From: Minisyncoccota bacterium
GTDB lineage: Bacteria > Patescibacteriota > Minisyncoccia > Phycocordibacterales > UBA9973
Assembly (NCBI GenBank): GCA_041662525.1
Contig: JBAZSF010000001.1
Coordinates: 105,383-169,382 of the forward strand
DNA: 64,000 nucleotides
Direction of reading: 5' to 3'
The position numbers were made by a program, and so were the translations under genes. The notes beneath the pieces are model-generated. The model was not told the origin of the DNA. It ran no database searches and saw only the letters and a program-made list of their open reading frames with translations. This document shows, piece after piece, positions 5,572 to 44,237 of this stretch (positions within the stretch are counted from its first letter, which is position 1; each line of letters begins with the position of its first letter).

Positions 5572-5610
5572 GCCGCGTAATTGTCCTTTAAAACGTAGCT
5601 ATTTTGGCTA

Positions 5611-7113: not shown

Positions 7114-7137
7114 ATATTAGTTATTTTAACATAAAAT

Positions 7138-8889: not shown

Positions 8890-8890
8890 G

Positions 8891-10894
8891 CTATTCCAAA
8901 ATTTTTCTTAAAACATCTTCGGGAACTTCCTTTGTTGCTGGTTTTTGAGGTATAGGAGTTGCCGAAGGTGAAGCCGTAGGTCCTGAGTTTGTCGAAGGAG
9001 TGATTTTTTCCTCAATCAAATCTTTTAATTTATTCATATCTTCTGCTGTGGCTGCACGATCTACGCCTATTGGACGAGCAGGTTTTTTTACTTCTTGCAT
9101 TTTATTTTTTAAAGAATCGAGCGAAATAGGAGTTGGGGTTGAAATAGGTGCTGGGGTAGATTTAGCTTCTACCACTACTTTATTTAAAACATCCTTTAAT
9201 GCTGAGGTATCCCTATTTATTGGATAAGTTGACTTGGGCCTGACTGGATAAGTAGGTGTAGGTTTAATTGGGGCTGGTTTGGTAAATACTTTTTTAAAAG
9301 TCTTAATTATTCCAGCAGGTTTTACAGGGGCGGTAGTTTGTTGAAATTCGATACCTAAATCAGCTAGTGGTTTATAAAATTTAGATTCATCATATTTGAT
9401 TTGATCTTGTCCCCTTTTTTCCACCTTTACTTCTCCGGATTTTATTTTTGCAATACATTCTTTACAATAAGCTGCTCGGCCCGGCTCAGGTTTAAAGGGC
9501 ACTGTTTTTTCTAGTTTACAAAGCGAACAAATTACTGGAAATTTTTCTATATTTCCATTGGTAGTATATGTATCACTACCTAATGACATTCCGCTCCATT
9601 CATTAATTTCTCGCTCCACTACCTCCCTAGACCTACAATAAATGGCACGGGAAGATTGTATTACTGCTTCTTCTATTTTTTTATCCCCAGACTTTACCAT
9701 GGGTGGTAAAGTCTTAGCGGAGAATGGACGGGATGTCACACCATCAATCATTAACTTTAAATAAATTTTATAGTTCGGCAAATTAACAATATCTCCCGGA
9801 GTAAATTCTGGATCAAATTCTTTTTCCAAAAAGTCTGCATCGTCCGAACCAACTCTAAAAACTATCATTGTACCTACGTTACCAAAGACAGCATCACGCA
9901 CCGCAGAGCTTTTATCCACCACGAGCTGTGCAGTATACTGATGCGCCACAGTTAGATTTAGTCTGTACTTTCTAGCTTCAGACAAAATACCAGCAAAAGC
10001 ATCTGTCACAAAGTTTTGGAATTCGTCCACATAGAGATAAAAATCTTTTCGATGTTCTTCGGGAATACGCACGCGTTCCATGGCGGCAAGTTGAATCTTA
10101 GTAATGATCATCCCACCCAAAAGCCCAGAATTGTCTTCACCGATGCGTCCTTTGGAAACGTTCACTAGAAATATCTTCCCATCATTCATAATATCAAAAA
10201 TATTAATAGTACTTTTAGATTGACCGACTACGTTTCGAATAATAGAAGTAGAAAGAAATTGTCCGACTTTATTTTGAATCGGAGCGATAGCTTCATTGCG
10301 AAATTTGTCTTGCCAAGCTTCATATTCATGCACCCAAAAAGCTTTGATCACGGGATCTTTTAAATTAGCAATTATTTTTTGACGATAATCCTTGTCCACC
10401 AGCATTCTAGGGATTCCCAAAAGCGTCGTCCCGGGAGTATCTAGCAATGCTAAAATACAATTATTCAAAATGTATTCCATTCGAGCACTCCAAGCATTCG
10501 CCCAGATTTTAGTAAAAATACCCATGAGTCCAGACGCCACTAAATGTTTATATTGCGGATCAATTAATTCTAAAACATTAAAACCAATATGGTAGTCCAC
10601 ATCTGCGGGATTAAAATAAACTACGTCTTTCATGCGCTCCGGCGGAATAGCAGACAAAACTCCTTCGACGAGTTCCCCGTGCGGATCAACCACACAAACA
10701 CCTTCACCGTTCTGAATATTCTGAATGATCATATTAAACATCAATACAGATTTACCCGAACCAGATTTTCCAAGAATATAAACATGCTGACGTCTGTCCT
10801 TGCGCTTGATACCAAAGAGCTGATTTTTATCACGAAAAGTTGTGAGCCCAAGATAAGTAATTTCTCTATTTATAGGTATTTCTGGAAGTTCCAT
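8891..10894 (-). CDS. Soluble TrwB/VirD4-like P-loop ATPase, paralog 2, with C-terminal CxxC..CxxC zinc ribbon and Pro/Thr-rich tail
   Basis: 'ILGKSGSGKS', 'VVDPHGE', 'FYLYVDEFQNFV', 'TVAHQY'. C-terminal 'CSLCKLEKTVPFKPEPGRAAYCKECI' followed by a P/T/S-rich low-complexity region (~230 aa). Confidence 0.65.
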   Translation of the reverse strand: MELPEIPINREITYLGLTTFRDKNQLFGIKRKDRRQHVYILGKSGSGKSVLMFNMIIQNIQNGEGVCVVDPHGELVEGVLSAIPPERMKDVVYFNPADVDYHIGFNVLELIDPQYKHLVASGLMGIFTKIWANAWSARMEYILNNCILALLDTPGTTLLGIPRMLVDKDYRQKIIANLKDPVIKAFWVHEYEAWQDKFRNEAIAPIQNKVGQFLSTSIIRNVVGQSKSTINIFDIMNDGKIFLVNVSKGRIGEDNSGLLGGMIITKIQLAAMERVRIPEEHRKDFYLYVDEFQNFVTDAFAGILSEARKYRLNLTVAHQYTAQLVVDKSSAVRDAVFGNVGTMIVFRVGSDDADFLEKEFDPEFTPGDIVNLPNYKIYLKLMIDGVTSRPFSAKTLPPMVKSGDKKIEEAVIQSSRAIYCRSREVVEREINEWSGMSLGSDTYTTNGNIEKFPVICSLCKLEKTVPFKPEPGRAAYCKECIAKIKSGEVKVEKRGQDQIKYDESKFYKPLADLGIEFQQTTAPVKPAGIIKTFKKVFTKPAPIKPTPTYPVRPKSTYPINRDTSALKDVLNKVVVEAKSTPAPISTPTPISLDSLKNKMQEVKKPARPIGVDRAATAEDMNKLKDLIEEKITPSTNSGPTASPSATPIPQKPATKEVPEDVLRKILE

Positions 10895-10928
10895 ATAGTA
10901 TATATTTTACAACAAAATCACAAAAACA

Positions 10929-10950
10929 AAAAGCCCCTTATGGGGCTTTT
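10929..10950. terminator. Rho-independent terminator downstream of dnaK (minus-strand sense)
   Basis: Hairpin aaagcccc-ttat-ggggcttt; on the minus strand it is followed by a T-run. Confidence 0.6.
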
Positions 10951-11043
10951 CAAAAAATTTAGAAAATAATTTTTTTGAACGGTCTGGCTGGGGTGGGACC
11001 CAGAGAACCGAGGACCTGAGAAAAAATTGATTTTCTAAATTTT

Positions 11044-12948
11044 TTACACCTTTGGTTCTTCGCCTTCGGGACCTTTTTCTTTAAATTCTGCGTCATGAAC
11101 TTCGGCTGGTTGTTCTTCAGGGGCACTAGCGGGAGGAGTTTCTGCTCCAGCTTTCGCCATCGCTTCCCCTATTTTTGACATTTCGGCAGAAAGCTCTTCG
11201 GTGGCTTTTTTAATTCCCTCACCATCAGTGCCATCTTTAACACCTCGCAAAGCAGTTATCTTTGCATTTACTTCATCTTTTAATTCTACAGGGATTTTTG
11301 CTTCATTATCCTTAAGAGCTTTTTCAGCAGTATAAATAATCATTTCTGCTGTATTTTTTACTTCTGCGTTCTCTTTTTTCTTCTTATCTTCCTCTGCGTG
11401 AAGCTCTGCATCAGCTTGCATTTTTTTGATATCTTCTTCTTTGAGTCCAGAGCTTGCTTCAATTTTAATTGATTGAGTTTTACCTGAGGCTTTATCTTTT
11501 GCGGAAACATTTAAGATTCCATTCACATCCACATCAAAAGCAACTTCAATCTGAGGCATCCCGCGAGGTGCTGGTGGAACTCCATCTAAAATAAATCGGC
11601 CGAGAGATTTATTGTCGGACGCCATAGGACGTTCTCCTTGCACGATGTGTATTTCAACAGAAGTCTGATTGTCTGCAGCGGTAGAAAATGTTTGAGACTT
11701 GCTTGATGGGATAGTGGTATTTCTTTCAATCAATTTTGTAGCCACTCCTCCTAAGGTTTCAATACCTAAAGATAGCGGTATTACATCAAGCAGTAAAACA
11801 TCTCGCACATCACCTTGTAACACGCCTGCCTGAACAGCTGCACCGAGTGCTACTACTTCGTCAGGATTAATGGACATATTTGGAGCTTTGCCGAAAAGTT
11901 CTTGCACTGCAGAAACTATCGCTGGCATTCTAGTCTGACCACCCACCATAATAATTTCATTAATTTCATTAATTTTAAATGGAGATGCGTCTAAAGCTCT
12001 TTTGGTAATCTTGATAGAAAGATCAATATACTCTTTGGCTAAAGATTCCAACATCGCTCGAGACATTTTTAGCAATAAATGTTTCGGCCCAGAAGCATCC
12101 GAAGTAATAAACGGAATATTTATTTCAGTTTCTGTCGTAGTGGAAAGTTCATGTTTAGCTTTTTCTGCAGCTTCTTTTAATCTTTGATGCGCTAGAGGGT
12201 CTTTGATCACATCAATACCAGACTCTTTTTTATACTCTTCAGCGATCCAAGAAATTATTTTTCTATCAATATCTCCTCCACCCATATGACTATCCCCATC
12301 AGTAGATTTAACTTCTATCACATCATCGCCTATTTCCAGCACAGACACGTCAAAGGTTCCCCCACCGAAATCGTAGACAACAATCTTTTCATTTTTCTTT
12401 TTATTGAATCCATAAGCAAGCGCAGCAGCAGTCGGCTCATTAATAATACGCTTCACATCCAGACCAGCAATTGCTCCTGCATCTTTGGTAGCTTTTCTTT
12501 GCGCATCATTAAAATATGCTGGTACGGTTATTATCGCTTCAGTAATTTTTTCTCCCAATTTCGCCTCAACATCAGCTTTTATTTTTTGCAAAGTCATTGC
12601 GGAAATTTCTTCTGGTCGATAAAATTTATCTGACATTTTTATTTTTACACCACCTCCTTCTCCTGCTTCAATTTTAAAAGATGCTGTCTCTCGATCTTTT
12701 TGCACTTCCGGATCATCAAATCGATGCCCCATATAACGCTTGATTTCAGCAATGGTATTTTCTGGATTTGTGACCGCTTGTCTTTTTGCAAGAAGACCGA
12801 CAATACGATCTCCATTTTTTGCAGTTGCCACGACAGAAGGTGTCGTACGATTACCTTCCACATTTTCTACTATCTTTGGTGCGCCACCTTCAATGATAGC
12901 GACTGCTGAATTTGTTGTACCTAAATCTATACCTATTATTTTTGACAT
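11044..12948 (-). CDS. dnaK: Chaperone DnaK (Hsp70)
   Basis: '[13 protein letters not shown]', '[10 protein letters not shown]', 634 aa, acidic C-terminus. Confidence 0.97.
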
Positions 12949-13047
12949 ATATTTTATAAGGTTAATTTATAATTTTTAATAATTTTACTAATATTTCGCG
13001 ACCACTAAAAACTTGTATAAACAGAGTATATATGATAGGATGCTTGC

Positions 13048-13563
13048 ATGTCAAGTAATAAAGATTATTCTAATAAAATACTTAAAATTTTAGGTAGAAA
13101 AAATGCTGTTTCTTTGCCAGAACTAAAAGAAAAAATTACTGGAGAAAAATATGCAATCACACGCTGTCTAAAAAATCTTAAAAATTCTGGATTGATAGAA
13201 CAAATACCCTCCCCACAAAATAATTATGCTCGCCTGACAAAACTTGGAAGAAAAAAAATGCATAGTTTAGAGTTGGATAGTGACACAACTCTTGTAAACA
13301 CTTCTTGGGATGGATTTTGGAGAATTATTCTACTTGATCTGCCTGAAAACAGAAAAAATGAACGGGAGTCTCTACGTTACCTTCTTAAAAAGGCTGGCTT
13401 CGTATGTCTAAAAAATTCCGCTTGGATATCCCCATTCCCCTTTGAACATTTATTTACGAATATTAAAAAAGACCTAGGACTTACCACTGAGATAATGATT
13501 ATCGTCACCGAAAATATAGATGAGGAAAGCAAAAAAGTTTTATTTGAAACTTTTGGAAAATAA
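13048..13563 (+). CDS. Short PaaX-like winged-helix transcriptional regulator
   Basis: N-terminal wHTH; C-terminal 'WDGFWRIILLDLPENRKNERESLRYLLKKAGFVCLKNSAWISP' matches the PaaX C-domain pattern 'WDG.W.lv.fd.pe..r..R..lr..L...Gf..l...vw..P'. Confidence 0.5.
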   Translation: MSSNKDYSNKILKILGRKNAVSLPELKEKITGEKYAITRCLKNLKNSGLIEQIPSPQNNYARLTKLGRKKMHSLELDSDTTLVNTSWDGFWRIILLDLPENRKNERESLRYLLKKAGFVCLKNSAWISPFPFEHLFTNIKKDLGLTTEIMIIVTENIDEESKKVLFETFGK

Positions 13564-13626
13564 TTAATAAACTTCCTGCTGATAACCCCGAACGAAAGCA
13601 AAGCTTCGTACAGGGTAGGCATTTTT

Positions 13627-15351
13627 CTAATAAATTTCTTGTTGATAACAACGTTCACAGTAAACTATTTCTGGTCGATCTGGCGCGTAACTAGTCTCAA
13701 ATTCTACTTCACATTTTTGTGTGCCATGTATGTGATTTTTTTTATCACACATACATTGCCTACGAAAAAAAAGAGGTAAATTTCGTAAGGTTAAACGTTC
13801 ATAATGCCGACAATTAATGCAAAAACGCGGTAATGGAAGATTCATTCTTTTTAAAAAATCAAGTTCTGATTTGATTATGCGAAAAGCCCCGGTGCATTCG
13901 TGTTCACAAGACTCATCGTGTGCACATTGAATAGCCTGATTAAGTATGTCATCACTTACATCATTGATATTATCTAAGATGTCTTTATTTTTTAAAGTAA
14001 ATTTATAATTTTGTTTTGTAGTTTCGTACCACGAAAACCCTTTCCTCTTTGCATCTTCTTTACCCAATGGAAAAAATTCGTAAGCAGTAGTTGCTTTGTA
14101 TGGAAAAAAAGAAAATTCACTTGGGAAAAATTCTCCATATTCTTTTGCTTGTTTCATATGTTCAATTATTTTGGGCACTAATTTTACATATTCTTCTTTT
14201 GTGTACTGTTTATTAAAAATACAATATTGCTTATTTCGAAGCGAAACACATCCAAAAAGATCTGATGAATTACTGCAAAAAACACAATAAGTTAAATTTT
14301 TTACATTTGTATAACAATAAGCACTAAATTTTATATTTGATCCCCCATTTCCAACAATAAGACTTTCGTAAATAAGTTCTACATTTTCTCCATAATTTGA
14401 ATAATCATAGCAATCCTTTACAGGTCCCATTAAAATATTTTGGACAAATTTGCTATCTTCCACCATCCTTACACGAAAACAATATTTTGCATTCTTAGAC
14501 CCATAAACATAATCACCAGAAACATTCACATTTTGACGATCGTGAATATATTTTTGCGGGTAATCAAGCCAATGTTTATATACCTCATCTTTTAATACTC
14601 TTAAGGCTTTATTAGAACCTAAATTTAATTCTTTAATATTTTTTAAATAATCTTCTCTAGAATATTGTTTATTAAAAATGCAATATGATTTATTGCGAAG
14701 ATTAATTGAACCAAAACAACTATTGCATCCAATACAATCTTTACACAAAATCATTTCCTGACAACTCTCACAATCAACAGAAAAAAATGTTTTATAACAA
14801 GCTGTAGTATTAATATTTCCATAACTCAATTCACATTGATTTGTCATATGGCTATCAAAGCATTGTTTAGAACCCTTATCCCAAATTAAATATGCAGAAT
14901 CTTCCGCATAAGAGACTCCTCCTCGAACCAAATAACAATTTTTTACATCATGCACATTAGTGCAATAGTAACAATTCACTAAATTATACATAGAATGCGC
15001 AGGTAGTGGCACCCTTAAAAGTAAACTTTTAAACTGTTCGAAAAATGTTTTTGTAAAATCAAAATCACGAGCATACTCAAGTGGATTCCAGGCATCAGAA
15101 ATCCAATAATCTCGATCATATATTTTATAAGGACTTTCTTCGGGAAAAAGTGAAAAAATTTCTTTTCCACCAAGAGCTTCCTTTTTCTTAAATAAATGCC
15201 AATCATTACGCCAGGCCATTCTTCGCTGCATCCTGCATTCCGGACAAAAAGTAGGCGGAGGTACTTTTATCTTTTCATAAAAATTAAAATCCTCCGGCTC
15301 TATGACAAATTCTTTCTTACAATTTTGGCAATTTTTTGTTTCAGATTTCAT
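13627..15351 (-). CDS. Cysteine-rich internally duplicated zinc-ribbon protein, paralog 2
   Basis: 574 aa. First ~45 and last ~30 residues are almost identical to paralog 1 ('MKSETKNCQNCKKEFVIEPEDFNFYEKIKVPPPTFCPECR' and 'KCEVEFETSYAPDRPEIVYCERCYQQEIY'); middle region divergent. Confidence 0.6.
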   Translation of the reverse strand: MKSETKNCQNCKKEFVIEPEDFNFYEKIKVPPPTFCPECRMQRRMAWRNDWHLFKKKEALGGKEIFSLFPEESPYKIYDRDYWISDAWNPLEYARDFDFTKTFFEQFKSLLLRVPLPAHSMYNLVNCYYCTNVHDVKNCYLVRGGVSYAEDSAYLIWDKGSKQCFDSHMTNQCELSYGNINTTACYKTFFSVDCESCQEMILCKDCIGCNSCFGSINLRNKSYCIFNKQYSREDYLKNIKELNLGSNKALRVLKDEVYKHWLDYPQKYIHDRQNVNVSGDYVYGSKNAKYCFRVRMVEDSKFVQNILMGPVKDCYDYSNYGENVELIYESLIVGNGGSNIKFSAYCYTNVKNLTYCVFCSNSSDLFGCVSLRNKQYCIFNKQYTKEEYVKLVPKIIEHMKQAKEYGEFFPSEFSFFPYKATTAYEFFPLGKEDAKRKGFSWYETTKQNYKFTLKNKDILDNINDVSDDILNQAIQCAHDESCEHECTGAFRIIKSELDFLKRMNLPLPRFCINCRHYERLTLRNLPLFFRRQCMCDKKNHIHGTQKCEVEFETSYAPDRPEIVYCERCYQQEIY

Positions 15352-15361
15352 AATCTTACCT

Positions 15362-15406
15362 TTTCCCCTTCTTCCCCTTCACCAGGTGAAGGGGAAGAAG
15401 GGGAAA
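15362..15406. repeat. 45-bp perfect palindrome (22-bp arms, 1-nt centre), GC-rich, between Cys-rich paralogs 3 and 2
   Basis: tttccccttcttccccttcacc a ggtgaaggggaagaaggggaaa, read directly; the two arms are exact reverse complements. Confidence 0.9.
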
Positions 15407-15408
15407 CT

Positions 15409-17097
15409 TTAATTTATATTTTGCTTGTAACATTCTTCACAGGCGATTTTTTGATATCCCCATTCTGGTAAATAATACGCTTCAATATCTTTTTTACAAT
15501 AAAAACATTTATATGAATACGCTTGCAAAACAGTTAAATATTTTAAACTATTTTTTATTCTCACATCAAAATGATAACGCGGGAGCGGTATATTATTTTC
15601 TTTATAAAAAGAAAGTTCATTTTGGGCAATATTAAAACGCCAACCTGTTTCTGGGCATAAAAGTGCCTGAGTGATAATAGTATCCGAAACATCTTTCACA
15701 TCATCAGGAAGTTCGTTTGTAGGCATCCCATCTGTCTGACCTTCTGTTGTATCTTCCCAATAACCACCAATCTTTAGCATATCTTCTTTTTTTGTGTTTG
15801 GAAAATAAAAAAACCCAGTAGAGAAATTAAATGGTCCAAGACTCATGGAATAAGGCAAAAATTTTCCATACTCACCTCTTTTTTTCATATCAGAAATAAT
15901 CTCATCCCGTAATTTTTCATATTCCTCTTTAGAATACTGCTTATTTAAAATACAATATTTCTTTTTCCTCAAACCCACACAACCAAAACAATATTCACAC
16001 TCAATACATAAATCTAAATATTCGGAATATCTAGAAGAAGACCAGCTAGAATATTTGAGAGCATAACCGCTGGGTTGGCAAGAACTACAATTCCCTGATA
16101 TTTCTAAATCCTGACAGCCGGTAATATCAATACAAGATTCCAATCCTCTACCCCTAATACAATTAGAACAATCTTCGGATTCTGAAATCGTAAAACAATT
16201 ATGACAATTTTTACAATCCAATAAATAATCTCCAAAAGAATTATGAACTTTTAAATTAAAATTAGGTCTATGCACTACTTCTTCTTGAACTATTTCTTCA
16301 AAATGTTTTTTATGCTTTTGGATAGAATCATAGGAACCAAGTTGAAATGATTTGATTTTTTTATCATATTCTTCTTTGGAGTATTGAACATTTTCTATGC
16401 AAAAAGATTTATTGCGAAGATTCCAGCACATAAAACAATCCTGACAATTCCGACAGTCATATAAAAAGTAAGAATTTATGCAATCTCGAGAATGTTTAGA
16501 GTAAAAAAGTTTATAAGAATGATGGCACTCAGAAGAGTCAAAACATTTTTCACTATTGTAACAAACTATCACATCAATAGAATTTTTTACATTGATGTTT
16601 CTATATGAATAAAATAAGTTTTCACAATCCACCATAGAACGTGAAAGATAACTATCTTTACAACTCCAAACATCATCGCACCAATCACATCCTGTGCTTT
16701 TACTACCATCTTGATGCGGACGAGGCACTTTTTCTTGGAGATTTTTTAATTGCTCAAAAAATGTTTTTTTCTCATCGTAATCTTCTCCATAATTCATTGC
16801 ATCCCATTTATCGCTGTACCATTCAGAAAGAGTGTAGATTGGATATCTGCTATTCTCCGGCAAAACTGTAATCAAACTTTCTCCAGAAAGATCAGATTTA
16901 CCTTTGCGAAATTTTCCAAATACCCAAAAAGACAAGTGCAATTTTACCCGACAGAAAAAACAAAGTGTCGGCAACTCTATATCAACTTTTTTATATAAAG
17001 ATAATTCTCCTTCTGTAATTAAAAAATTATTTCCACAATGCTCACAAATATTAGTTTGTTGGTTCTTTGTATTCATATACATTGACCCTCGCGGCAC
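15409..17097 (-). CDS. Cysteine-rich internally duplicated zinc-ribbon protein, paralog 3 (most divergent; start codon ambiguous, overlaps grpE 3' end)
   Basis: 562 aa. N-terminal 'CEHCGNNFLITEGELSLYKKVDIELPTLCFFCR', central 'CRNCQDCFMCWNLRNKSFC', 'CFGCVGLRKKKYCILNKQYSKEEY', C-terminal 'CFYCKK...CEECYKQ'. Alternative starts: MYMNT at 17082 or MNT at 17076. Confidence 0.55.
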   Translation of the reverse strand: MPRGSMYMNTKNQQTNICEHCGNNFLITEGELSLYKKVDIELPTLCFFCRVKLHLSFWVFGKFRKGKSDLSGESLITVLPENSRYPIYTLSEWYSDKWDAMNYGEDYDEKKTFFEQLKNLQEKVPRPHQDGSKSTGCDWCDDVWSCKDSYLSRSMVDCENLFYSYRNINVKNSIDVIVCYNSEKCFDSSECHHSYKLFYSKHSRDCINSYFLYDCRNCQDCFMCWNLRNKSFCIENVQYSKEEYDKKIKSFQLGSYDSIQKHKKHFEEIVQEEVVHRPNFNLKVHNSFGDYLLDCKNCHNCFTISESEDCSNCIRGRGLESCIDITGCQDLEISGNCSSCQPSGYALKYSSWSSSRYSEYLDLCIECEYCFGCVGLRKKKYCILNKQYSKEEYEKLRDEIISDMKKRGEYGKFLPYSMSLGPFNFSTGFFYFPNTKKEDMLKIGGYWEDTTEGQTDGMPTNELPDDVKDVSDTIITQALLCPETGWRFNIAQNELSFYKENNIPLPRYHFDVRIKNSLKYLTVLQAYSYKCFYCKKDIEAYYLPEWGYQKIACEECYKQNIN

Positions 17098-17671
17098 GGA
17101 TTACGCGTTCGCCTAGTTTATAGCCTTTTTGAATCACATTTGCGATAGTATGATCTTGTTCTTTTTTATTTGTTTCTACCATATCAATAGACTGATGAAT
17201 ATTGGGATCAAAACTCTCCCCCGTCTCCCCTATTGTTTTTACTCCGTATTCTTCAAAAATGGTATTCATCTGAGCGTAAATATATTCCACGCCTTTTCGC
17301 CAGTTTTCATCCACCTTTTCCCAAGCTTCCTTGTTCGCAAAAGCCATATTAAAACTATCAATCACAGAAAGAAAACGAGTTAAAATTCTCTCTCGCATCG
17401 CTTCTGAAAAAAGTGCTTTTCTATCTTCTTCCTGCTTACGATAATTAACAAAATCTGCTCGCTCTTTCTGCCAGCCAGTTAAATATTCTTCTTTTTCGGC
17501 TTTGCACACTTTTAGATCAGCTCTAAATTTCTTTAAAGTTTTCTTTAAATCTTCTTCTCCGTCTTCGTTAAATTCAAACTCTAAAACCTCAGACGAGTCA
17601 ACAGACTCGTCCCGAGCAGCCTCGAGGGAATCTTTTATTTCGGTATCAATTTTCTTTTCTTCATCTGACAT
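17051..17671 (-). CDS. grpE: Nucleotide exchange factor GrpE
   Basis: 206 aa, acidic N-terminus, coiled-coil 'FRADLKVCKAEKEEYLTGWQKERADFVNYRKQ', C-terminal beta domain 'ANVIQKGYKLGERVIRAARV'. Confidence 0.85.
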   Translation of the reverse strand: MSDEEKKIDTEIKDSLEAARDESVDSSEVLEFEFNEDGEEDLKKTLKKFRADLKVCKAEKEEYLTGWQKERADFVNYRKQEEDRKALFSEAMRERILTRFLSVIDSFNMAFANKEAWEKVDENWRKGVEYIYAQMNTIFEEYGVKTIGETGESFDPNIHQSIDMVETNKKEQDHTIANVIQKGYKLGERVIRAARVNVYEYKEPTN

Positions 17672-23267: not shown

Positions 23268-24467
23268 TTATGCTTGCCCCGATATAGTGGGGTAAATTAA
23301 AAAACGATTAATGTAAACAGAATCAATAATTAAAAAAGGTTCACGAAATACATTTTCCTTAAATGCTACAATTCCTTCAAGAAATTTTTCATTTAAAAAA
23401 ATAGTTTCAAACTTTGATTCTGTTAAAGTATATTGACTAAATTGTTCAGTTTTAATTGTTTCAGAGAAAAAATCTACTAAATCTTTATCAATAATTATAA
23501 AAATAGTTGATGGAATAGAAATGTCATTCGATAAATTAGCCAAGGAGTCTTGAAATTTCTTCAACCATTCGGTTCTTAATTTATTTAAAATTACTGTGAG
23601 TTTTTTAGCCATGGATTCTTCTGCATGTCCATCTCTAAAAAGAGAAATAAGAGATTCAGCCTCACCCAAGGTACAATTTAAATCTAAGGCAACTCCACGT
23701 GTTAAAAAATTACACCCAAGAGGAAAAGACACCGACTCACGCAAGGTATCCTTTTTTATCATAGATATATCCGTCACTTCTCCACCTATTTCTAATAAAA
23801 GAAAATTTTCTTGTTTTTTATATATATCCCGTACTGTTGTAAAAAAAGACAATAGAAAAGAAGAAAATCTTATTTGTTTAAAATGAAAATATTTACCTAT
23901 TGTATTCTCTATTTTTTTTAATATTTGTTCTCCACTCATAGAAACAAAAATATTCATTTCTAATTCTTTAATTTTTTTATTAAAGAACTCAGACGTTTCG
24001 TAACCATTTAGCATTATTTTAATATTTTTAAGTTCAATCATTCGAATTCTGTTATCAATATTACCATATTTCAATGTATGTTCTTCTTCGAAAAGTTTTA
24101 TTTCTTTTTGTATTAATTCATCAGCCAATTTTTCAGTAAATAAAAAGGGTGTATTTTTCTTTAAATTAATTATTCTTGTTTGAGAAATACACCAAGGAGA
24201 AGATAAAACGCAAAAAGTCTGGGAGGGTGTACCCAAGCCTGCTTTGTAAATTTTTTCAACAACAATATCTAGAGATTTTATTGTAGATAATAAAAAATTA
24301 TCAATATTAATCTTTTCTTCTATTTTTATAAACTCTTTAGTAGAAAAAATTATTTTAGGAATTCCAGAGCTTTGTGCCTCCAAAAGTGCTCCATCTACAG
24401 AAGAGGACCTAATATTAAAAACTAGCACTAACTCACTTTTTTCTTTAAATTTAGAAAAAATACTCAT
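23268..24467 (-). CDS. PilM/FtsA-like actin-fold ATPase (start probably ATG at 24467; track start 24503 is a TTG inside a conserved noncoding element)
   Basis: 'LVLVFNIRSSSVDGALLE' (phosphate-1-like) and 'LLLEIGGEVTDISMIKKDTLRESVSFPLGCNFLTRGVALDLNCTLGEAESL' resembling the FtsA/PilM 'DiGggtTDi...ipiGG..it.dIa' motif. Confidence 0.5.
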   Translation of the reverse strand: MSIFSKFKEKSELVLVFNIRSSSVDGALLEAQSSGIPKIIFSTKEFIKIEEKINIDNFLLSTIKSLDIVVEKIYKAGLGTPSQTFCVLSSPWCISQTRIINLKKNTPFLFTEKLADELIQKEIKLFEEEHTLKYGNIDNRIRMIELKNIKIMLNGYETSEFFNKKIKELEMNIFVSMSGEQILKKIENTIGKYFHFKQIRFSSFLLSFFTTVRDIYKKQENFLLLEIGGEVTDISMIKKDTLRESVSFPLGCNFLTRGVALDLNCTLGEAESLISLFRDGHAEESMAKKLTVILNKLRTEWLKKFQDSLANLSNDISIPSTIFIIIDKDLVDFFSETIKTEQFSQYTLTESKFETIFLNEKFLEGIVAFKENVFREPFLIIDSVYINRFLIYPTISGQA

Positions 24468-24486
24468 GTAATAATTATAACAACAA

Positions 24487-24554
24487 ACGAGGAGCATAAA
24501 CAAGTTTATTTGTTTAATGTCCGAGTGCCGTTGTTATATGGTAATCCATATAGC
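24487..24554. promoter_or_regulatory. Conserved ~70-bp promoter/operator module, copy 1: 18-bp palindrome TATATGG-N4-CCATATA plus AAACAA..TTGTTT palindrome, then TATAAT just upstream of the pilM/ftsA-like gene
   Basis: Near-identical to 39620-39688 upstream of clpB (sequences compared directly). Confidence 0.55.
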
Positions 24555-24573
24555 ATAAACAAAAACCAAAAAA

Positions 24574-26214
24574 CTACAGAAGCACAGCTTTTATGCGTCG
24601 TATTCCATGCGCTACTGCCTCTTCTTTTTGAATTTTAAATATACCCAATTCTGAAGTATTGGAAACATGCGGACCACCGCAAAATTCTCTACTAAAATAT
24701 CCAGTTTTTTCATCCCCTATGGAATAAACCTTAACCATATCGCCATATTTTTCATTAAAAGAATGTGTGGCTATTTTTTCTGCATCCACTTTAGACATTT
24801 CCATAAAACCAACTGGTAATTTTTCAGCGATTTTATCATTTACGATTTCTTCTACTTTTTTCTTTTCCTCTTCAGTCATCTTTTGTGAATGGGTAAAATC
24901 AAAACGTAATCGCTCTCCAGTAATATTGCTTCCCTTTTGCATGACATGATTACCGAGCACTTGCCTGAGAGCAGCATTTAATAAATGCGTAGCGGTGTGC
25001 AATTTTTTGGCTTCTTCTCCCCCATCTGCCAATCCTCCCTTAAACATTCCGACCGAAGCTGTTTGAGATAATTTTTGATGATCTGCCATTTTTTTATTAA
25101 AATCATCTAAATCAATTTCTTTTCCTTTTTCTTTCGCTAATTCTTGAGTAAGCTCTATCGGAAAACCATAAGTAGTAAATAAAATAAATGGATCTATCCC
25201 TCTTTCAAATTCTTTTAAACCTTTTGCAAGTGTTTCTCTAAACTTAGTTTCTTCTTTTTCTATTTCTTCTTTGTCATCAAGAATATATACTTCTTTGTAA
25301 ATTTTTTTTATTTTTTCAATTTCTTGTCTTAAAGAATATTTAGAAAATCTAACCGCTCGTCTAATTAATCTTCGAAGAACATATCCTGCACCAGTGTTAG
25401 AGGGAGTAATACCATCTGAAATAATAAAAAGAGCAGCTTTTACATGATCAGCAACAATACGTTCCTCTCTATTTTCTTCATTACTAAAAACGTCAGTACC
25501 ATAAACACTTTTCTTTTTTTGAACAGTGGCAACTAATCGCTCGAAGCCCATCCCTGTATCTATTCCCAAAATATCTAATTTTTTCAAAGTTGCTTCACCT
25601 TTATCTAATTTCTCGCGCGAGCCATCACAAAAATATTCATTAAAAACTATGTTCCAAATTTCAACATCTTGACCGGTATCATTTTTACAATAAATTTCTG
25701 TTGTTGGACCACAGGGACCACAATCTCCCGTAGGCCCCCAAAAAACATCACTGCCCTCTTCACGGATGTCTTTCATCCCTAATTCTTTCCAAATTTTTTC
25801 AGATTCATTATCTCTCGGAACATTTTCACTTCCTTCATAAATTGTGACATACGAAATTTCCAAATTCATTTCTTTAGTAATAAATTCATAAGCGTATTTA
25901 ATTGCCTCTTTTCTTCCATAGCCGCCAAAAGAGAAATTTCCAAGCATTTCAAAAAATGTTAAGTGTGTAGAATCACCAACTTCGTCTATATCTCCAGTAC
26001 GGATACATTTTTGAGCCGTAGTAATATTTCTATTCCCAAAATCTTTATCAGCACTAGCTGGATTAGTATAGTACGGCTTAAACTGTTGCATTCCTGCAGT
26101 CGTAAAAAGCACCGATGGATCATTCTCTGGTACCAGTGAAGCTGAAGGAATTATTTTATGTCCTCTGTTCTCAAAAAATTTTAAAAATTTTAATCTAATT
26201 TCATCTGATTGCAT
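24574..26214 (-). CDS. alaS: Alanyl-tRNA synthetase, short form (546 aa; catalytic and editing motifs present, C-terminal domains absent)
   Basis: 'FLKFFENRGHKIIPSASLVPENDPSVLFTTAGMQQFKPYY' class II catalytic N-terminus; editing-site 'HTATHLLNAAL...CGGPHV'. Confidence 0.85.
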   Translation of the reverse strand: MQSDEIRLKFLKFFENRGHKIIPSASLVPENDPSVLFTTAGMQQFKPYYTNPASADKDFGNRNITTAQKCIRTGDIDEVGDSTHLTFFEMLGNFSFGGYGRKEAIKYAYEFITKEMNLEISYVTIYEGSENVPRDNESEKIWKELGMKDIREEGSDVFWGPTGDCGPCGPTTEIYCKNDTGQDVEIWNIVFNEYFCDGSREKLDKGEATLKKLDILGIDTGMGFERLVATVQKKKSVYGTDVFSNEENREERIVADHVKAALFIISDGITPSNTGAGYVLRRLIRRAVRFSKYSLRQEIEKIKKIYKEVYILDDKEEIEKEETKFRETLAKGLKEFERGIDPFILFTTYGFPIELTQELAKEKGKEIDLDDFNKKMADHQKLSQTASVGMFKGGLADGGEEAKKLHTATHLLNAALRQVLGNHVMQKGSNITGERLRFDFTHSQKMTEEEKKKVEEIVNDKIAEKLPVGFMEMSKVDAEKIATHSFNEKYGDMVKVYSIGDEKTGYFSREFCGGPHVSNTSELGIFKIQKEEAVAHGIRRIKAVLL

Positions 26215-26698: not shown

Positions 26699-27889
26699 TC
26701 ATACAACGACTCCACCACCTAAGCAAATATCACCATCATAAATAACACAAGATTGGCCAGAAGCAACCAAAATCGGTTTTTTAAAAAACACTGTTGCCCT
26801 TCGACTACGTTCAGGGCCTTCGGCGACTTTGATTGTACAAGGTAGAAATTCTCCATGATAACGAATTTGCGCTGTGTAAGTTTTATTTGATTCTGGAATC
26901 TTGTTAATCCAATTTATATTTTCTAGATTTATTTTAGAATCAAATTCAACCCCCCTTAATCCCCCCTTATCAGGGGGAAGCTGGGACACATATAAAATAT
27001 TTTTCTTTATATTTTTACCAAATACATAATAAGCCCCATCCGTTGGCATTTTTTTTGTAATGGTAAAACCATGCCTTTCTCCTAGAGTATAAAAAACTAC
27101 TCCATCATGATAGCCGATTTCTTCCCCTTTTTCGTTTAACACTTTACCTTTTTTTTCTTTTATGTAATGTTTCAAAAATTCTTTTAAATCAACTGCTCCT
27201 AAAAAACAAATACCTTGGCTATCTTTTTTTTCTGAAACTGGAAGATTGAATTTTTTAGCAAATTTTCTAACTTCAGTTTTTTTAAAACCTCCAATAGGAA
27301 ATAAAATTTTCTTTAACTGTTCTTGTTTTAGTGTCCATAAAAAATAACTTTGGTCTTTTGTAGGATCATTACCTTTCATTAAAAAACTCAAAGCAGTGCT
27401 TTCTGCGACATTCGCAACCAAAGCTCGGTCAGTCATGTTCAAGATAGAGTGCGAGTCGCAAGAAAGTACCTGATTTGAGTTTTTTGCATAATGTCCTGTA
27501 GCCACAAAAATCTCCGCCGAAGGACGGACAAGCGCACCCAGCAAAAGAGCTTTTTTAAGAAAGGCTCCAAATTTCACCTCTTTATTGCACATCACATCTG
27601 GATTTGGTGTCCTTCCGAGCTTGTATTCTCGAATCATATAATCAGCCACTTCTTTTTTGTACACGTCCTCAAGATCAAAAGTAAGAAATGGGATGTCTAA
27701 AGATGCCGCTACACGCATCGCATCCATCCGTTCTTCTTCTTCATTACAAACTAGAAAATCCGGATGCCAAGTTTTAATAAAAACCCCCACGACTTCATAT
27801 CCTTGTTTTTTAAGCAAAGTAGCCGAAACAGCGCTATCTACACCACCAGACAAACCTACAAAAACTATTTTTTTCTTAATGTTAGTCAT
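26699..27889 (-). CDS. mnmA: tRNA-specific 2-thiouridylase MnmA (with in-frame GC-rich palindromic mini-insertion)
   Basis: PP-loop 'IVFVGLSGGVDSAVSA', 396 aa; insertion encodes 'PPDKGGLRG'. Confidence 0.88.
   Translation of the reverse strand: MTNIKKKIVFVGLSGGVDSAVSATLLKKQGYEVVGVFIKTWHPDFLVCNEEEERMDAMRVAASLDIPFLTFDLEDVYKKEVADYMIREYKLGRTPNPDVMCNKEVKFGAFLKKALLLGALVRPSAEIFVATGHYAKNSNQVLSCDSHSILNMTDRALVANVAESTALSFLMKGNDPTKDQSYFLWTLKQEQLKKILFPIGGFKKTEVRKFAKKFNLPVSEKKDSQGICFLGAVDLKEFLKHYIKEKKGKVLNEKGEEIGYHDGVVFYTLGERHGFTITKKMPTDGAYYVFGKNIKKNILYVSQLPPDKGGLRGVEFDSKINLENINWINKIPESNKTYTAQIRYHGEFLPCTIKVAEGPERSRRATVFFKKPILVASGQSCVIYDGDICLGGGVVV
26944..26980. repeat. C-run/G-run hairpin mini-element (attcaaccccccttaatccccccttatcagggggaag), copy 1, in-frame inside mnmA
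   Basis: Second copy at 45342-45379 (attcaacccccttcttttcccccttatcaggggggaat); ~60% GC in a ~33% GC genome. Confidence 0.8.
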
Positions 27890-27900
27890 AAGATTTTAAA

Positions 27901-28014
27901 CTATAGAATCAAAAAATTCTCTAAAAAGCCCGCATAATTTTCTGCTGAAAATTTGCTTAGACTTCGGCTCGTCAGCCTCCGTATGACTTTTTATAGAACA
28001 TTTTGATTCTATAG
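27901..28014. repeat. MITE-like intergenic element: perfect 14-bp terminal inverted repeats (ctatagaatcaaaa / ttttgattctatag) flanking a core (27933-27981) that recurs inverted at 44454-44506
   Basis: TIRs read directly. Core has 24-nt and 18-nt blocks matching the reverse complement of 44454-44506 (18/18 on cggctcgtcagcctccg). Confidence 0.7.
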
Positions 28015-28536
28015 TTGCATCAGCTTTTTGTAAAGCTCAAAAGTTGCACGCGCATCCGAGAGAGCACTATGAGGGTGCTTATTTTTTATACCAAAATGCA
28101 AACACAATTCACGTAAAGAAAAATGTTCAAAATCTTTATCTTGATGAAATCCTGCCCAAGCGATAGAGATAGTATCTAGTTTGTGATAATGCATAGTATT
28201 CGCAATTCCTGTTTTATTAAAAACATATTCTAAAAACCCAGCATCAAAAGCAACATTGTGGCCAACCATAATACAACTTTTTACTTTTTTAGAAAAAATT
28301 TCTATTGCTTCTTTTAAACTAATTGCATTTTCCCAATCTTGAATATTGAAATGATTCACTTTAATGGCAGCCGGATCAGCATTTTCAATATGTTCTGGCT
28401 TAATTTTTAATTCAAATTCTTCAATCACTTCTAAAGAAGGTGACGTGAGTACACAGCCGATCTCAATAATCTCATGCTTAAGCAAATTAAGACCAGTAGT
28501 TTCTATATCAATAAAAGCAAAATTGTGTTTTCTCAT
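28009..28536 (-). CDS. DnaQ-like DEDDh 3'-5' exonuclease (DNA polymerase III epsilon-like)
   Basis: Exo I 'FAFIDIETTGL', Exo II 'VGHNVAFDAGFL', Exo III 'HSALSDARATFELY'. Confidence 0.8.
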   Translation of the reverse strand: MRKHNFAFIDIETTGLNLLKHEIIEIGCVLTSPSLEVIEEFELKIKPEHIENADPAAIKVNHFNIQDWENAISLKEAIEIFSKKVKSCIMVGHNVAFDAGFLEYVFNKTGIANTMHYHKLDTISIAWAGFHQDKDFEHFSLRELCLHFGIKNKHPHSALSDARATFELYKKLMQL

Positions 28537-36649: not shown

Positions 36650-36709
36650 AGCAAAGCAGTTTGCTCGCTCCTTTACACAAAACAAAAATCCCTTTCGGGA
36701 TTTGTTTTG

Positions 36710-36792
36710 TGCGCCGGGAAGGATTCGAACCTTCGTAGCCCGAAGGCGAGGGATTTACAGTCCCTTGTATTTGACCGCTCTACCACCGACGC
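36710..36792 (-). tRNA. tRNA-Tyr (anticodon GTA), class II with long variable arm, CCA not encoded
   Basis: Manual fold: acceptor GCGUCGG/CCGGCGC, D-arm GGTAGAGCGG, anticodon loop CUGUAAA, long variable arm, T-loop GGTTCGAATCC. Confidence 0.85.
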
Positions 36793-36846: not shown

Positions 36847-39579
36847 TTAAACCGAAGATCGAGATCGCACACGAATTGAGCTTTTTATTTTTCTTGCCCG
36901 TCCTCCGGCGGGGCCTTTTTTTGTTTCAACAACAATTTCGTTATTTTTCTCAGAAACAAATACAGTGTCCCCTTTGGATACTTTGTTTGAAATAATATAA
37001 GACGCAACTGAATTCAAAATCTTATTCTGAATCAAACGGTTCAGTGGTCTCGCTCCATAATGTGGGTTATATCCTTCTTTTGCTAAATAAGAAAGTGCTC
37101 CATCAGAAATCTCAAAATTTATTCCTTTGGCTTTCAGACGATCAACTACAACCTTGATACGCAAATTGACTATTTCTTTTAGAGCAATTTCCGACAAAAC
37201 ATCAAAGACAATAATCTCATCTAAGCGATTCAAAAATTCTGGACGAAAATTATCTTTTAACGCTTCTGTCACTTTTTCTTTCATACTACCATAATCTTGT
37301 TTTTGAGAATTATTAGAAAATCCAATTGATTCCATCTTTTCTACAAATTGTGAACCGATATTAGAAGTCAAAATTATAATAGTATTTTTGAAATTTACTA
37401 CTCTTCCTTTACCATCAGTCAGTCGCCCTTCATCAATAACCTGCAGAAGCATGTTAAAAACTTCTGGATGAGCTTTTTCAATTTCATCAAAGAGAATCAC
37501 CGCATATGGACGATGCCGAACAGCTTCAGTCAATTGACCAGCCTCATCGTATCCCACATATCCTGGCGGAGACCCAATGAGCTTGGACATAGAATGTCTC
37601 TCTGTATATTCAGACATATCCACCCGAATAATCGCACTCTCATCATTAAACATAAATTGCCCAAGTGCCTTTGTGAGTTCAGTCTTACCGACACCTGATG
37701 GACCTAGAAAAATAAAAGAACCGATTGGTCGATTTGGATCTCCGATACCAGCACGAGAACGACGAATAACATCAGCCACGCGCCCGATAGCAGCGTCCTG
37801 ACCCACCACTCTCTTTTTTAGTTCAACCTCCATCTTTTCAAGCTTTTCACGTTCTTCTTCAAGCATCTTTGTGAGTGGTATTCCCGTCCAACGAGCCACC
37901 ACCTCGGCGATATCTTCAGCAGTGATTTCTTCTTTTAAAATTCTACGAGATTTTTGCAATTTCTTTAATCGTGCGAGTTTTATATCGAGCTCTTTCTGAA
38001 GGGTAGGTATTTTCCCATAACGTAATTCAGCAGCTAAAGTAAGATCCGCTTTCATTTCTGCATCTTCGGCTTCCAAACGAATACTTTCGAGTTCTTTCTT
38101 AATACCTCTGATTTCTAATACGATTGTTTTTTCGTTCTGCCATTTTAATTCCAATTCTTTTGTCTTCTCAGACAAATTACCTATTTCTTTGTCTATTTCT
38201 TTAATTCTATTTTTTATTTCATTATTTTTTCCTTGTACTTTTTCTTTTTGTTTTTCTTCTCCACTCGAAGAACTGATCTCTTTTTTGAGAGCTTCTTTTT
38301 CGATTTCTAAACGCATTGTTTTTTTGTTCGCATCTTCTAAAATCGGTGGCTTATTTTCAAGCATTATCTTTAATGAAGAAGAAGCTTCATCAATCAAGTC
38401 CACAGCTTTGTCTGGTAAAAATCTGTTTGTAATATAACGAGAAGACAGATTGACCGCAGACACGATAGCATCATCAGTAATTCTGATACCATGGAAAAGT
38501 TCATACTTTTCTTTAAGCCCACGAAGAATTGTAATGGTATCTTCTATGCTAGGTTCATCGATATAAACAGGCTGGAAACGGCGTGCTAATGCAGGGTCTT
38601 TCTCAATATGTTTTTGATATTCTCGCAAGGTAGTGGCGCCAATAGCTCGAAGTTCTCCACGAGAAAGCGCTGGCTTCAACATATTTGAAGCATCCATTGT
38701 GCCTTCGGCTCCGCCTGCACCGACAATAGTGTGGATCTCATCAATAAAAAGAATTATTTTTCCAGCAGATCGTTCGATCTCTTTCATAATGCCTTTCAAT
38801 CTTTCTTCAAATTCTCCACGGTATTTTGTACCGGCCACAAGCATTCCTAAATCAAGAGAAACAATTTCTTTATCTTTTAAAGATTCAGGAACATTATTTT
38901 TTGCAATCAATTGGGCTAGCCCTTCCACTACAGCAGTTTTTCCAGTCCCCGCCTCCCCTATCAAAATAGGATTATTTTTTGTTCGACGTGAGAGAATCTG
39001 CATTATGCGAGTGATTTCACTATCCCGACCAATGACTGGATCTAATTTATCTTCTTTAGCCAACTTTGTTAAATTGCGAGTATATTTTACCAATAATTTA
39101 AATTTCTTTGGCTCGGAAACATCTGTGATATTTTGACTACGGAGTTCTCCTAAAACTTTCATTACTTGATCTTTGTGAATCCTAAATCTAGCCAAAGTCT
39201 CACGTGCTTCACTTGTGACTTCGAGAATTGAGATAAAGAGATGTTCTGTTGAAACAAAATCATCTTTCATAAACTCTGCCAGTTTAGCTGACTGTTCTAT
39301 AACTTGTGCTAAATCAGGATTGAGATAAATCTGATACGAAGGTGAGATGGTGCTACGTGCTTCTGGTAATTCAATTAATTCTAAAACAGAATCAGTCAAA
39401 AGCATTGTATCGATTTCCAATTTATCTAAAATAGAGTTCACCATAGATTCCTCTTGTAGTAAAAGTGCACCGAGCAAATGCAATGAAGAAACATGGTTCA
39501 TACCACGTTCGATAGCCAGCTCATGGGCTTTTTTAATGGCATCTTTGGCTTTAGTTGTAAATTTATTTAATGGTGGCAT
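36847..39579 (-). CDS. clpB: ClpB disaggregase (two AAA+ modules with coiled-coil middle domain)
   Basis: Clp-N repeats, Walker A 'GEAGTGKT' and 'GPSGVGKT', long coiled-coil M domain between NBD1 and NBD2, 910 aa. Confidence 0.9.
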
Positions 39580-39619
39580 ATTTTTTTAATTTAAATTATA
39601 TATTTATATTATAGCAATA

Positions 39620-39688
39620 AATGAGGAGCAGAAACAAATTTATTTGTTTAATGTCCGAATGTAGTTGCTATATGGTAATCCATATACA
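39620..39688. promoter_or_regulatory. Conserved ~70-bp promoter/operator module, copy 2, upstream of clpB (TATATGG-N4-CCATATA palindrome at 39669-39686)
   Basis: aatgaggagcagaaacaaatttatttgtttaatgtccgaatgtagttgctatatggtaatccatata is ~85% identical to 24487-24554; followed on the minus strand by a TATAAT-like box and the clpB ATG. Confidence 0.55.
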
Positions 39689-39711: not shown

Positions 39712-40500
39712 TTACTGAAGTTTAGATGAAGAAATATCTGTCTTTGTAGAATTTCCTGCTCCTAAAACATCATTAATAGTTTTGATTGAAACAAAATTTG
39801 TCACATCACTAAAGAGAGCAATACCGAGGGCTTCCCCATTTAAGTTAAGAACTAGTCCTCCAGCATTTGATTTTGTAACATTAATATCAATATTCTTATT
39901 TCCTTCATAAATAGAAGAGGAAATGTTACTACCTAAAACTAAAACTTTTTGTCCCTCTTTCATTTTACTTAAATCTCCAAAAACTGGTACCGTAAAAGAT
40001 AATTTATTCTTCTCATCGAGCGGAGATCCTATTTTAAGAAAAGAAAATCCAGACTTGTCAGTTGATATAAAATCCGCTTTAAATTTTCCACTATCATTTT
40101 TTACATAATAAACTTCTTTATCAAGAATAAATGTTGAATCGGTTACAATAATTCCATCAGTAGAAATAGCAAATCCTCGCCCAGCCCCTATTTCAATAGT
40201 TTTAAGATCCGCATCTTGTGCTTCCTTCGTTATAGAAAATACAGATGATTTATTTTTAGCAATTGCGTCTACTACTAAATCTTCTTCTTTAATAATTACT
40301 GTTTGAACTGTAGTTTTTCCTTCGACTTGCTCTATTTTTTCAATTGTTTGTTGAACAACACGATTAATCGGTGTAGTAAAAGACGCTGGTGCTTGTTGCA
40401 TCAAAGTCACAGTCGTTATACCTGTAGCTATAGAAGTGACAAAGCTAAGCAAAATAGCGAGTAATATAAGTTGGGTTTTATTTAATTCCTTAATATCCAT
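39712..40500 (-). CDS. Membrane-anchored HtrA/S1C trypsin-fold homolog lacking the catalytic triad (pseudo-protease)
   Basis: N-terminal TM. 'GAGRGFAISTDGIIVTDSTFI' where HtrA has 'GSGfii..dGyIvTNnHVv' (His lost); 'SGFSFLKI' for 'sDlAvlKi' (Asp lost); 'SNAGGLVLNLNGEALGI' for 'GNSGGPLvNl.GevIGI' (Ser to Ala). Confidence 0.5.
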   Translation of the reverse strand: MDIKELNKTQLILLAILLSFVTSIATGITTVTLMQQAPASFTTPINRVVQQTIEKIEQVEGKTTVQTVIIKEEDLVVDAIAKNKSSVFSITKEAQDADLKTIEIGAGRGFAISTDGIIVTDSTFILDKEVYYVKNDSGKFKADFISTDKSGFSFLKIGSPLDEKNKLSFTVPVFGDLSKMKEGQKVLVLGSNISSSIYEGNKNIDINVTKSNAGGLVLNLNGEALGIALFSDVTNFVSIKTINDVLGAGNSTKTDISSSKLQ

Positions 40501-44115: not shown

Positions 44116-44237
44116 CAAAAAATTAAATAGTTTTAATTTTTTGCTGATTTGCTGAAAGCAAAATTGCCGATGTGAGACAAAGTCGAACAGGCAATAAGAA
44201 AAGAAGTATGTTAAAATATTTTAGGATAAATAAAATT

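Follow-up and report, generated by a model that had tools for sequence, protein, structure and literature searches.

The window, the 64-kb stretch of DNA analyzed here, holds two copies of a short non-coding module, each placed between co-directional minus-strand genes and just upstream of one of them. Copy 1 lies between alaS, its upstream neighbor (24574–26214), and a gene for an FtsA/PilM-like actin-fold ATPase (23268–24467, minus strand, 399 aa), and copy 2 between a trypsin-like peptidase gene (39712–40500), again the upstream neighbor, and clpB (36847–39579, minus strand). A repeat search of the window pairs 24474–24552 with 39608–39686 as a 79-nt direct repeat of 89% identity; the two similar segments described in an earlier note are thus real, and longer than first noted. 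Both contain the two inverted repeats reported there: TATATGG-N4-CCATATA occurs at exactly two sites in the window, 24535–24552 and 39669–39686 (0.23 chance matches expected at ≤2 mismatches), and AAACAA-N6-TTGTTT is found at 24498–24515 and 39632–39649. Both also have a TATAAT near a start codon, which is very probably a −10 box, and the idea of a common promoter-bearing module stands. When run over the whole window with filters off, a covariance model of the element finds only copies 1 and 2 (108 and 101 bits; next hit ≤21 bits).

The unit measures ∼73–79 bp and consists of a 55-nt hairpin body, a TATA, a TGG-N4-CCA segment, and a further TATA; its minus-strand end reads TTGnTATAAT. In copy 1, the −10 hexamer of the FtsA/PilM-like gene (24474–24479, minus strand) is made up of a host-derived AT (24474–24475) and a proximal junction TATA (24476–24479), the TG of the extended −10 is at 24482–24481, and a 6-nt spacer (24468–24473) leads to the ATG at 24467. 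The body (24480–24534) forms a long irregular hairpin and is followed by the short palindrome TATATGG-TAAT-CCATATA (P4, 24535–24552), in which a central TATA (24535–24538), TGGTAATCCA (24539–24548), and a distal junction TATA (24549–24552) can be told apart. Copy 2 is built in the same way, with a TATAAT on the minus strand at 39608–39613 (host AT 39608–39609, junction TATA 39610–39613), a 55-nt body at 39614–39668, and the same TATATGG-TAAT-CCATATA palindrome at 39669–39686 with its distal junction TATA at 39683–39686.

The TATAAT of the element stands 6 nt from the neighboring ATG in 51 and 7 nt in 29 of 126 loci among the matches listed (80 of 126 together). Among 718 element-free ORFs of the same genomes, TGnTAnnnT before the first ATG likewise shows a sharp peak, with 60 cases at 6 nt, 28 at 7 nt, and about 0–1 at other offsets. 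Boxes of the form TRTGnTAnnnT are seen 6–7 nt before the start codons of a large share of genes in the window and in loci L002–L161, and the internal genes of operons there carry Shine-Dalgarno sequences of the GGAG type. Extended −10 boxes 6–7 nt before the ATG are the rule in these Paceibacteria, in which, judging from sequence, the first genes of operons appear to give leaderless mRNAs. The TATAAT of the element would be an active promoter, and because this geometry is general here, transcripts from it are probably leaderless. Copy 2 is an exception: its TATAAT (39613–39608) lies 28 nt from the clpB ATG at 39579, so the leaderless geometry fails there; a further TATAAT on the minus strand (39600–39595) lies 15 nt before the same ATG. 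For the FtsA/PilM-like gene, the preference for ATG 24467 over the TTG at 24503 is borne out by the N termini MSIFSK, MGIFSK, and MGIFGE, which align in the comparison with the orthologs of L022, L011, and L054; the TTG is placed inside the conserved non-coding element.

Homologs were collected in two scans. A 19-base pattern run against one genome per species returned 40 stretches, 31 of which are full-length homologs, all from Paceibacterota, Nomurabacteria, or Patescibacteria MAGs (some labeled Saccharibacteria); the other stretches match by chance and contain no further part of the element. A different pattern run against metagenome contigs gave at least 120 loci, and all those among the matches listed carry the element (49–108 bits), while the covariance model gives nothing on chance-match loci used as controls. 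The element is thus known from >150 Paceibacterota/Nomurabacteria loci and from no other group among the collections scanned; a viral origin was rejected, the sole match in a viral contig being a chance match within coding sequence. Rfam 15 at gathering thresholds finds five tRNAs in the whole window and no family matching the element, and a search of 24400–24620 at E-values up to 10 returns noise only. We met no description of it in the CPR/Patescibacteria literature searched (open-access PubMed Central and bioRxiv), and it is an unreported family of candidate-phyla bacteria. Its copy number is low: there are two copies in the 64-kb window and one to three per genome or long contig, most matching GTDB genomes having one match and two genomes having two, and contigs of 250–813 kb having single matches, all of which are lower bounds given the strict patterns used.

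On the plus strand, the consensus reads ATTATAnCAAYAAAYGAGGAGCAT-AAACAA-(loop)-TTGTTT-A-ATGTCCGARYGNN-RTTGn'TATATGG-TAAT-CCATATA-nCA and folds into two hairpins. The long one begins with P1 (8 bp; 24477–24484 paired with 24530–24537 in copy 1, 39611–39618 with 39664–39671 in copy 2), followed by an AA/GNN internal loop, P2a (2 bp; 24487–24488 with 24525–24526), and a tandem G-A/A-G mismatch (24489–24490 opposite 24523–24524) that lies within CGAG/CGAG and is invariant. Beyond it come P2b (GGA/TCC; 24491–24493 with 24520–24522), a bulged G (24494), P2c (CAT/ATG; 24495–24497 with 24517–24519), a bulged A, and P3 (24498–24504 with 24509–24515; 39632–39638 with 39643–39649 in copy 2, the core of which, GAGGAGCA, is at 39623–39630). 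The second, short hairpin is P4 (7 bp), in which loops of 3, 4, and 14 nt were met. Across 33 genome copies, 97.6% of the cells are paired and 8 pairs have changes on both sides; across 89 distinct metagenome copies among the matches listed, 96.4% are paired and 19 of 27 pairs are doubly changed. None of 500 shuffles reaches any of these measures, slid controls are 25%–48% paired, and RNAalifold finds the same helices independently. The apex of P3 varies in length by +3 to +12 nt with pairing kept, folding z-scores range from −2.5 to −3.7, and as DNA the two strands fold equally well (−11.2 kcal/mol).

Because the covariation is this strong, the palindromes are to be understood as base-paired stems and not as protein half-sites, which bears directly on the proposal of the earlier note that they are operators of an unknown dimeric transcription factor with a small heat-shock regulon that includes clpB. 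The location upstream of genes would suit an operator, as would the pattern TTGnTATATGG-N4-CCATATAnCAA, in which n varies independently on the two arms like an uncontacted base. However, the stems covary while the half-sites are not conserved as such, the arm-to-arm distance differs by the same +3 to +12 nt, the loops of P4 are of three sizes, ∼1 Mb of related DNA holds no P4 without the remainder of the element, and a host-derived flank, described below, accounts for the independent n. The genes downstream encode thymidylate synthase (ThyA), Ddl, PilM, PilB, PilD, RRF, PBP1, TyrRS, MltG, lytic transglycosylases, a VirD4-like ATPase, ClpB, and many others; 116 Pfam families are represented among 104 downstream proteins, the commonest being PilM/FtsA (7), RRF (5), and Ddl (5), and there is no heat-shock enrichment. 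Moreover, the element is missing at dnaK, dnaJ, and grpE, all of which are in this window, and orthologous genes in other genomes do without it. Genome-wide copies at random positions away from gene starts, which the earlier note had held in advance against its own proposal, were not seen. Copies do keep close to gene starts, but the reason is the position of the element within promoters and not a role as operator. The operator model is already largely refuted, and we consider it highly improbable. It was right, on the other hand, that the sequence is neither a CIRCE nor a CtsR site, as reading both copies and 150 homologs confirms, and it is not an HspR-HAIR site either. The CIRCE consensus is TTAGCACTC-N9-GAGTGCTAA, the CtsR direct repeat is GGTCAAA, and HAIR is CTTGAGT-N7-ACTCAAG; all that copy 1 has is a GAGTGC fragment, which is not conserved, reading GAATGT, GAACGC, or GAGCGC in other copies.

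A conserved secondary structure with covariation is also what is expected of a structured RNA, and the element might be an RNA gene of ∼85 nt on the plus strand of the window or a cis-acting RNA made on the minus strand by read-through or as a 5′ leader. Every helix covaries, the apical stem is variable in length, the folding z-scores are negative, and the plus strand is favored by tandem G-A mismatches, purine bulges, and some CUUG loops. In functional RNAs, G-U intermediates dominate. Here, G-U exceeds A-C on the plus strand only slightly (19 versus 13 over distinct arm combinations) and not significantly, with transversion mismatches equally common: the ratio of G-U to A-C to other mismatches is 12:7:9 in P1 and 7:6:7 in P2a, and unconstrained columns give 45 G-U versus 36 A-C. 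An assignment to the plus strand by an excess of G-U over A-C, seen in a first small set, was dropped when it was lost in larger, less biased sets. The A-U, U-A, and G-C states of a pair are about equally frequent, and A-U to U-A flips, atypical of RNA, are common. Nor are the signals of an RNA gene in place: no conserved promoter is found to the left of the element on the plus strand, where the sole signal is the start codon of the neighbor (CAT), no terminator follows P4, which is without a U-tract, and the orientation is always locked to the neighboring gene start. An internal promoter for an RNA spanning the whole hairpin was rejected, the internal −10-like boxes being TATATG, which lacks the essential final T, as was a symmetric plus-strand −10, which would start transcription at A16, inside P1. 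Read-through RNA cannot be general, because canonical GC-rich terminators often lie immediately upstream of the element in the minus sense. With no match in Rfam either, we regard an RNA as quite improbable; the absence of a G-U excess and of a promoter and terminator of its own makes a structure at the DNA level likelier than an RNA gene. We favor pairing that acts in DNA, in a single-stranded intermediate, a cruciform, or a correction templated by the opposite arm, and the invariant purine-rich irregularities hint that the fold of the plus strand is the form recognized.

Several other readings of the hairpin were tried. SRP RNA, 6S RNA, a K-turn, a sarcin-ricin motif, and known ribozymes were rejected from sequence, since the apex is variable and has no GNRA loop, and the three-base bulge is missing because the tandem G-A mismatches are flanked by covarying pairs. 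A small plus-strand ORF (MSECRCYMVIHIA/…) has three of the four differences between the window copies at synonymous positions, yet homologs contain stops (e.g., L004), the mini-ORF MSECRCYMVIHI is interrupted in homologs, and the synonymous-like pattern is explained by the covariation of the stem. A role as intrinsic terminator was set aside as well: scoring gave no terminator-like site, GC-rich terminators are often found ahead of the element, and P1 would be left unexplained. An invertible promoter switch does not agree with the ∼150 copies, which all share one internal orientation.

The origin of the element is best seen by comparing filled and empty sites. Several orthologs of the downstream genes in other genomes have plain TGnTATAAT-N6-ATG promoters with the element absent. 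The divergent pilB-polA spacer is empty in L012, has the element adjoining pilB in L007 and L036, and has it in the opposite orientation, adjoining polA, in L158; when the element is excised in silico at the flanking TATAs with one TATA kept, the L007, L036, and L158 spacers become colinear with that of L012, and the insertion points are the TATAs of the respective −10 hexamers. The same excision turns window copy 1 into TATGC-TATAAT-N6-ATG and the syntenic copies in L022 and L011 into TATGA-TATAAT-N7-ATG and TGTGC-TATAAT-N6-ATG, matching the empty orthologous site of L054/L086 (TATGA-TACAAT-N6-ATG). In copy 1, the minus-sense GTTTATGC at 24553–24560 is the orphaned upstream half of the original host promoter, and joined to TATA and AT it restores TATGCTATAAT. 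Over 121 sites, the distal flank beyond P4 matches the upstream half of a generic promoter in composition (T at −5 in.66 versus.67, a purine-rich −4, TG in 74%–75%), is unlike the element's own proximal copy R-T-T-G-n, and has a variable base that does not covary with the stem, all as expected if the flank is host DNA. The element is therefore present or absent at orthologous sites with colinear flanks, as an insertion element would be. The arms of P1, TATAnCAAC/GTTGnTATA, form inverted repeats with TA/TATA at their borders, and one side has an extra TGG-N4-CCA-TATA module; with three TATAs present, it is ambiguous where exactly the element ends and whether TA or TATA is duplicated. The element has no coding capacity and no linked transposase, and no gene is recurrently linked to it, the best protein family being found at 10 of ∼150 loci.

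Tandem and decayed units occur in L006, L013, L023, L028, L047, L067, L076, L091, L125, L155, and L092; the second units of tandems begin exactly at the distal TATA and are often decayed, which fits another insertion at the same target. In one fully decayed copy, the gene still has a promoter. In L069, a P4-like mini-palindrome on the plus strand (∼1790–1802, ATGGAGTACCAT), which lacks the long hairpin, immediately precedes a gene start and may be the remnant of an element or part of one.

These observations are best explained by a Correia/MITE-like, non-autonomous element that has the −10 box as its target and restores the promoter into which it inserts, and we put the probability that it is an insertion element supplying a working promoter at roughly 0.65. 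It would insert into the −10 hexamer of an extended −10 promoter already in place (TRTGn-TATA|AT), 6–7 nt before an ATG. Insertion would move the original TRTGn-TATA half to the far side, where the host TATA and the TGG-N4-CCATATA of the element would form P4 as a junction palindrome, and on the near side the TTGn-TATA of the element would meet the host AT-N6/7-ATG and recreate TTGnTATAAT. The gene would keep a consensus promoter because TTGnTATAAT is recreated at the junction. We infer that the element moves, or formerly moved, by way of a DNA intermediate that depends on the stems and might be a single-stranded hairpin or involve identical terminal repeats. The very low copy number speaks against an insertion element, classical MITE and REP families having tens to hundreds of copies; many dispersed copies per genome, as in MITEs, are not seen. 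Another point against it is that no transposase was identified in the ∼8-kb loci covered.

The element is more conserved than the proteins around it. At syntenic sites, it is 86%–97% identical, as compared with 34%–43% at the four-fold sites (saturated) of the adjacent gene, and it reaches 97% identity beside proteins that are only 39% identical. An identity so far above that of four-fold sites speaks for purifying selection in place, and so for a function at the host level or in cis that goes beyond selfish persistence. One explanation, which we consider unlikely, is that the element is a domesticated regulatory device acting at the DNA level, in which extrusion of a hairpin or cruciform, or a structure-specific protein, sequesters or exposes the −10 and extended −10, coupling expression to supercoiling or to a putative factor; insertion would then be a matter of history, and the present conservation would reflect host function. 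Besides the conservation in place, greatly above the neutral expectation, such a device would account for the left arm of P1 being the extended −10 region itself, for mismatch statistics that are strand symmetric, as if both strands must fold, for the tolerated changes of apex length, and for the juxtaposed invariant CGAG/CGAG motifs, which are sensible only when folded. It has to contend with the four conserved irregularities, which break the palindrome and so disfavor cruciform extrusion, with downstream genes that form no coherent set, and with decayed copies whose gene retains its promoter. Under the preferred reading of a promoter-supplying insertion, the strong conservation would come from what mobility requires or from a secondary role for the host at the promoter; the constraint may come from continuous turnover that filters for transposition-competent copies, or from function in place. 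The low copy number, together with an invariant asymmetric core (the tandem CGAG/CGAG G-A mismatches, the bulged G, and the AA/GNN internal loop), argues that the folded form is read by something specific.

Going further, it is conceivable, and we suggest it only tentatively, that the element is a new type of active mobile DNA for ultra-compact genomes or, alternatively, that its folded core now serves, by co-option, as a switch of DNA structure at the rebuilt promoter. If mobile, it would carry an internal TATA-containing guide that recognizes the TATA of a core promoter −10 box; in copy 1 this guide would be the central TATA (24535–24538), able to pair with either junction TATA (in P1 or in P4). 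Insertion would occur in one orientation and rebuild an extended −10 leaderless promoter, the host gene would still be expressed, excision would be precise, and a putative HUH-like or structure-specific enzyme would read the invariant G-A/bulged-G core.

Known systems offer partial parallels. Palindrome-associated elements derived from IS200/IS605 depend for their function on imperfect DNA hairpins with extrahelical bases and transpose as single strands, inserting beside a fixed tetranucleotide in a strand-specific orientation, with precise excision possible; the element found here differs in the positions of its hairpins relative to its ends, and its inverted-repeat-like P1 arms and apparent TATA duplication are atypical of that family. 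In single-stranded-DNA promoters (Frpo of the F plasmid, rolling-circle sso, the M13 minus-strand origin), the stem of a long imperfect hairpin reconstitutes −35-like (TTG) and −10-like boxes; these act on plasmid or phage single-stranded DNA, whereas the present element is chromosomal, stands before housekeeping genes, and has a normal duplex promoter. An integron attC site, which would have R″/R′ core sites (RYYYAAC / GTTRRRY), one ORF per site in a cassette array, and an integrase or a cluster of attC sites, was rejected, as only the CAAC/GTTG of the core sites fits, housekeeping genes (alaS, clpB, frr, tyrS, and others) flank the element, and the window copies lie 15 kb, about a dozen genes, apart. 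Also rejected were oriC, dif, and parS: the GC skew stays negative throughout both copies, with no switch, neither the parS nor the dif consensus is present, and copies can be multiple or in tandem.

The closest likeness is to the CREE/NEMIS of Neisseria, which are non-coding palindromes of 69–157 bp with inverted-repeat ends beginning in TATA, inserted at TA with duplication, filled or empty between genomes, able to form hairpins and to create a promoter at their end for the adjacent gene, without an encoded transposase, and present in 100–250 copies per genome at many kinds of site, including coding sequence, in one genus only (PMC2649163). Shared with the present element are the small non-coding palindrome, the TATA ends, the filled and empty sites, the promoter at one end, the hairpins, and the lack of an encoded transposase. 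In contrast to CREE, there are one to three copies here, lying inside −10 boxes at leaderless distance from the ATG, with ∼90% conservation across a class-level clade; the motifs of the internal loops are invariant, and a second hairpin spans the junction. In minus sense (24552–24535), the element starts with TATATGGATTACC, which agrees with the Correia repeat end TATAG[CT]GGATTAAC at 11 of 12 positions (PMC2649163), probably by chance. Like ERIC/IRU, REP/BIME, and RUP/BOX (PMC2229807, PMC10969869), the element is an imperfect intergenic palindrome with compensatory stem changes and partial or tandem copies, and its sequence is kept across species while its locations differ; those families differ in being usually multi-copy and in lying in transcribed 3′ or inter-cistronic regions, outside the core promoter. 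No report of ERIC/REP/BOX-type palindromic repeats from Patescibacteria was found in the open-access PubMed Central or bioRxiv literature searched. Highly similar promoter regions before unrelated genes, within and between genomes, have been described as promoter reuse or putative mobile promoters (PMC3575422), a statistical catalog without element anatomy, whereas the present unit is defined together with its junctions and its target, the −10 TATA. What sets the element apart from Correia repeats is the targeting of the −10 TATA, the rebuilt extended −10 leaderless promoter, the low copy number, the class-wide conservation, and the internal-loop core.

A plausible but wrong regulon idea thus gives way to a defined element, and one gene start is mended. 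If −10 targeting and self-repair of the promoter are true, this would be mobile DNA that persists harmlessly in genomes with scant intergenic space. The element could also serve as a portable promoter and as a marker for organisms still without genetic tools.

The window holds other features of related kinds. A second, sequence-unrelated upstream module in minus sense, GTCGCGC-N14-GCGCGAC followed by ATGATTTCGTAAAATCAATTATG, without an Rfam match, is found at 5540–5599, 47965–48024, and 49677–49736; it lies upstream of two T4SS-pilin genes (47593–47976 and 49289–49690) and at the annotated start of dnaJ (4453–5571), whose real start may be a downstream ATG. At 27899–28016, a 118-bp unit has 30-nt inverted-repeat ends that are 90% complementary (AACTATAGAATCAAAA…/…TTTTGATTCTATAGTT) and adjoins the TAAAAT-CTT-ATG of an mnmA-like gene (26699–27889); it may be another palindromic insertion beside a −10 box. 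The chaperone genes dnaJ, dnaK, grpE, and clpB (4453–17671 and 36847–39579) are interleaved with two VirD4/TraG-like ATPase genes (5611–7113 and 8891–10894) and with three unannotated paralogs of ∼570 aa (7138–8889, 13627–15351, and 15409–17097). A tRNA-Tyr gene (36709–36792, minus strand) lies just downstream of clpB, and a cluster of tRNA genes (Cys, Leu, Lys, Leu) is found on the plus strand at 44044–44612.
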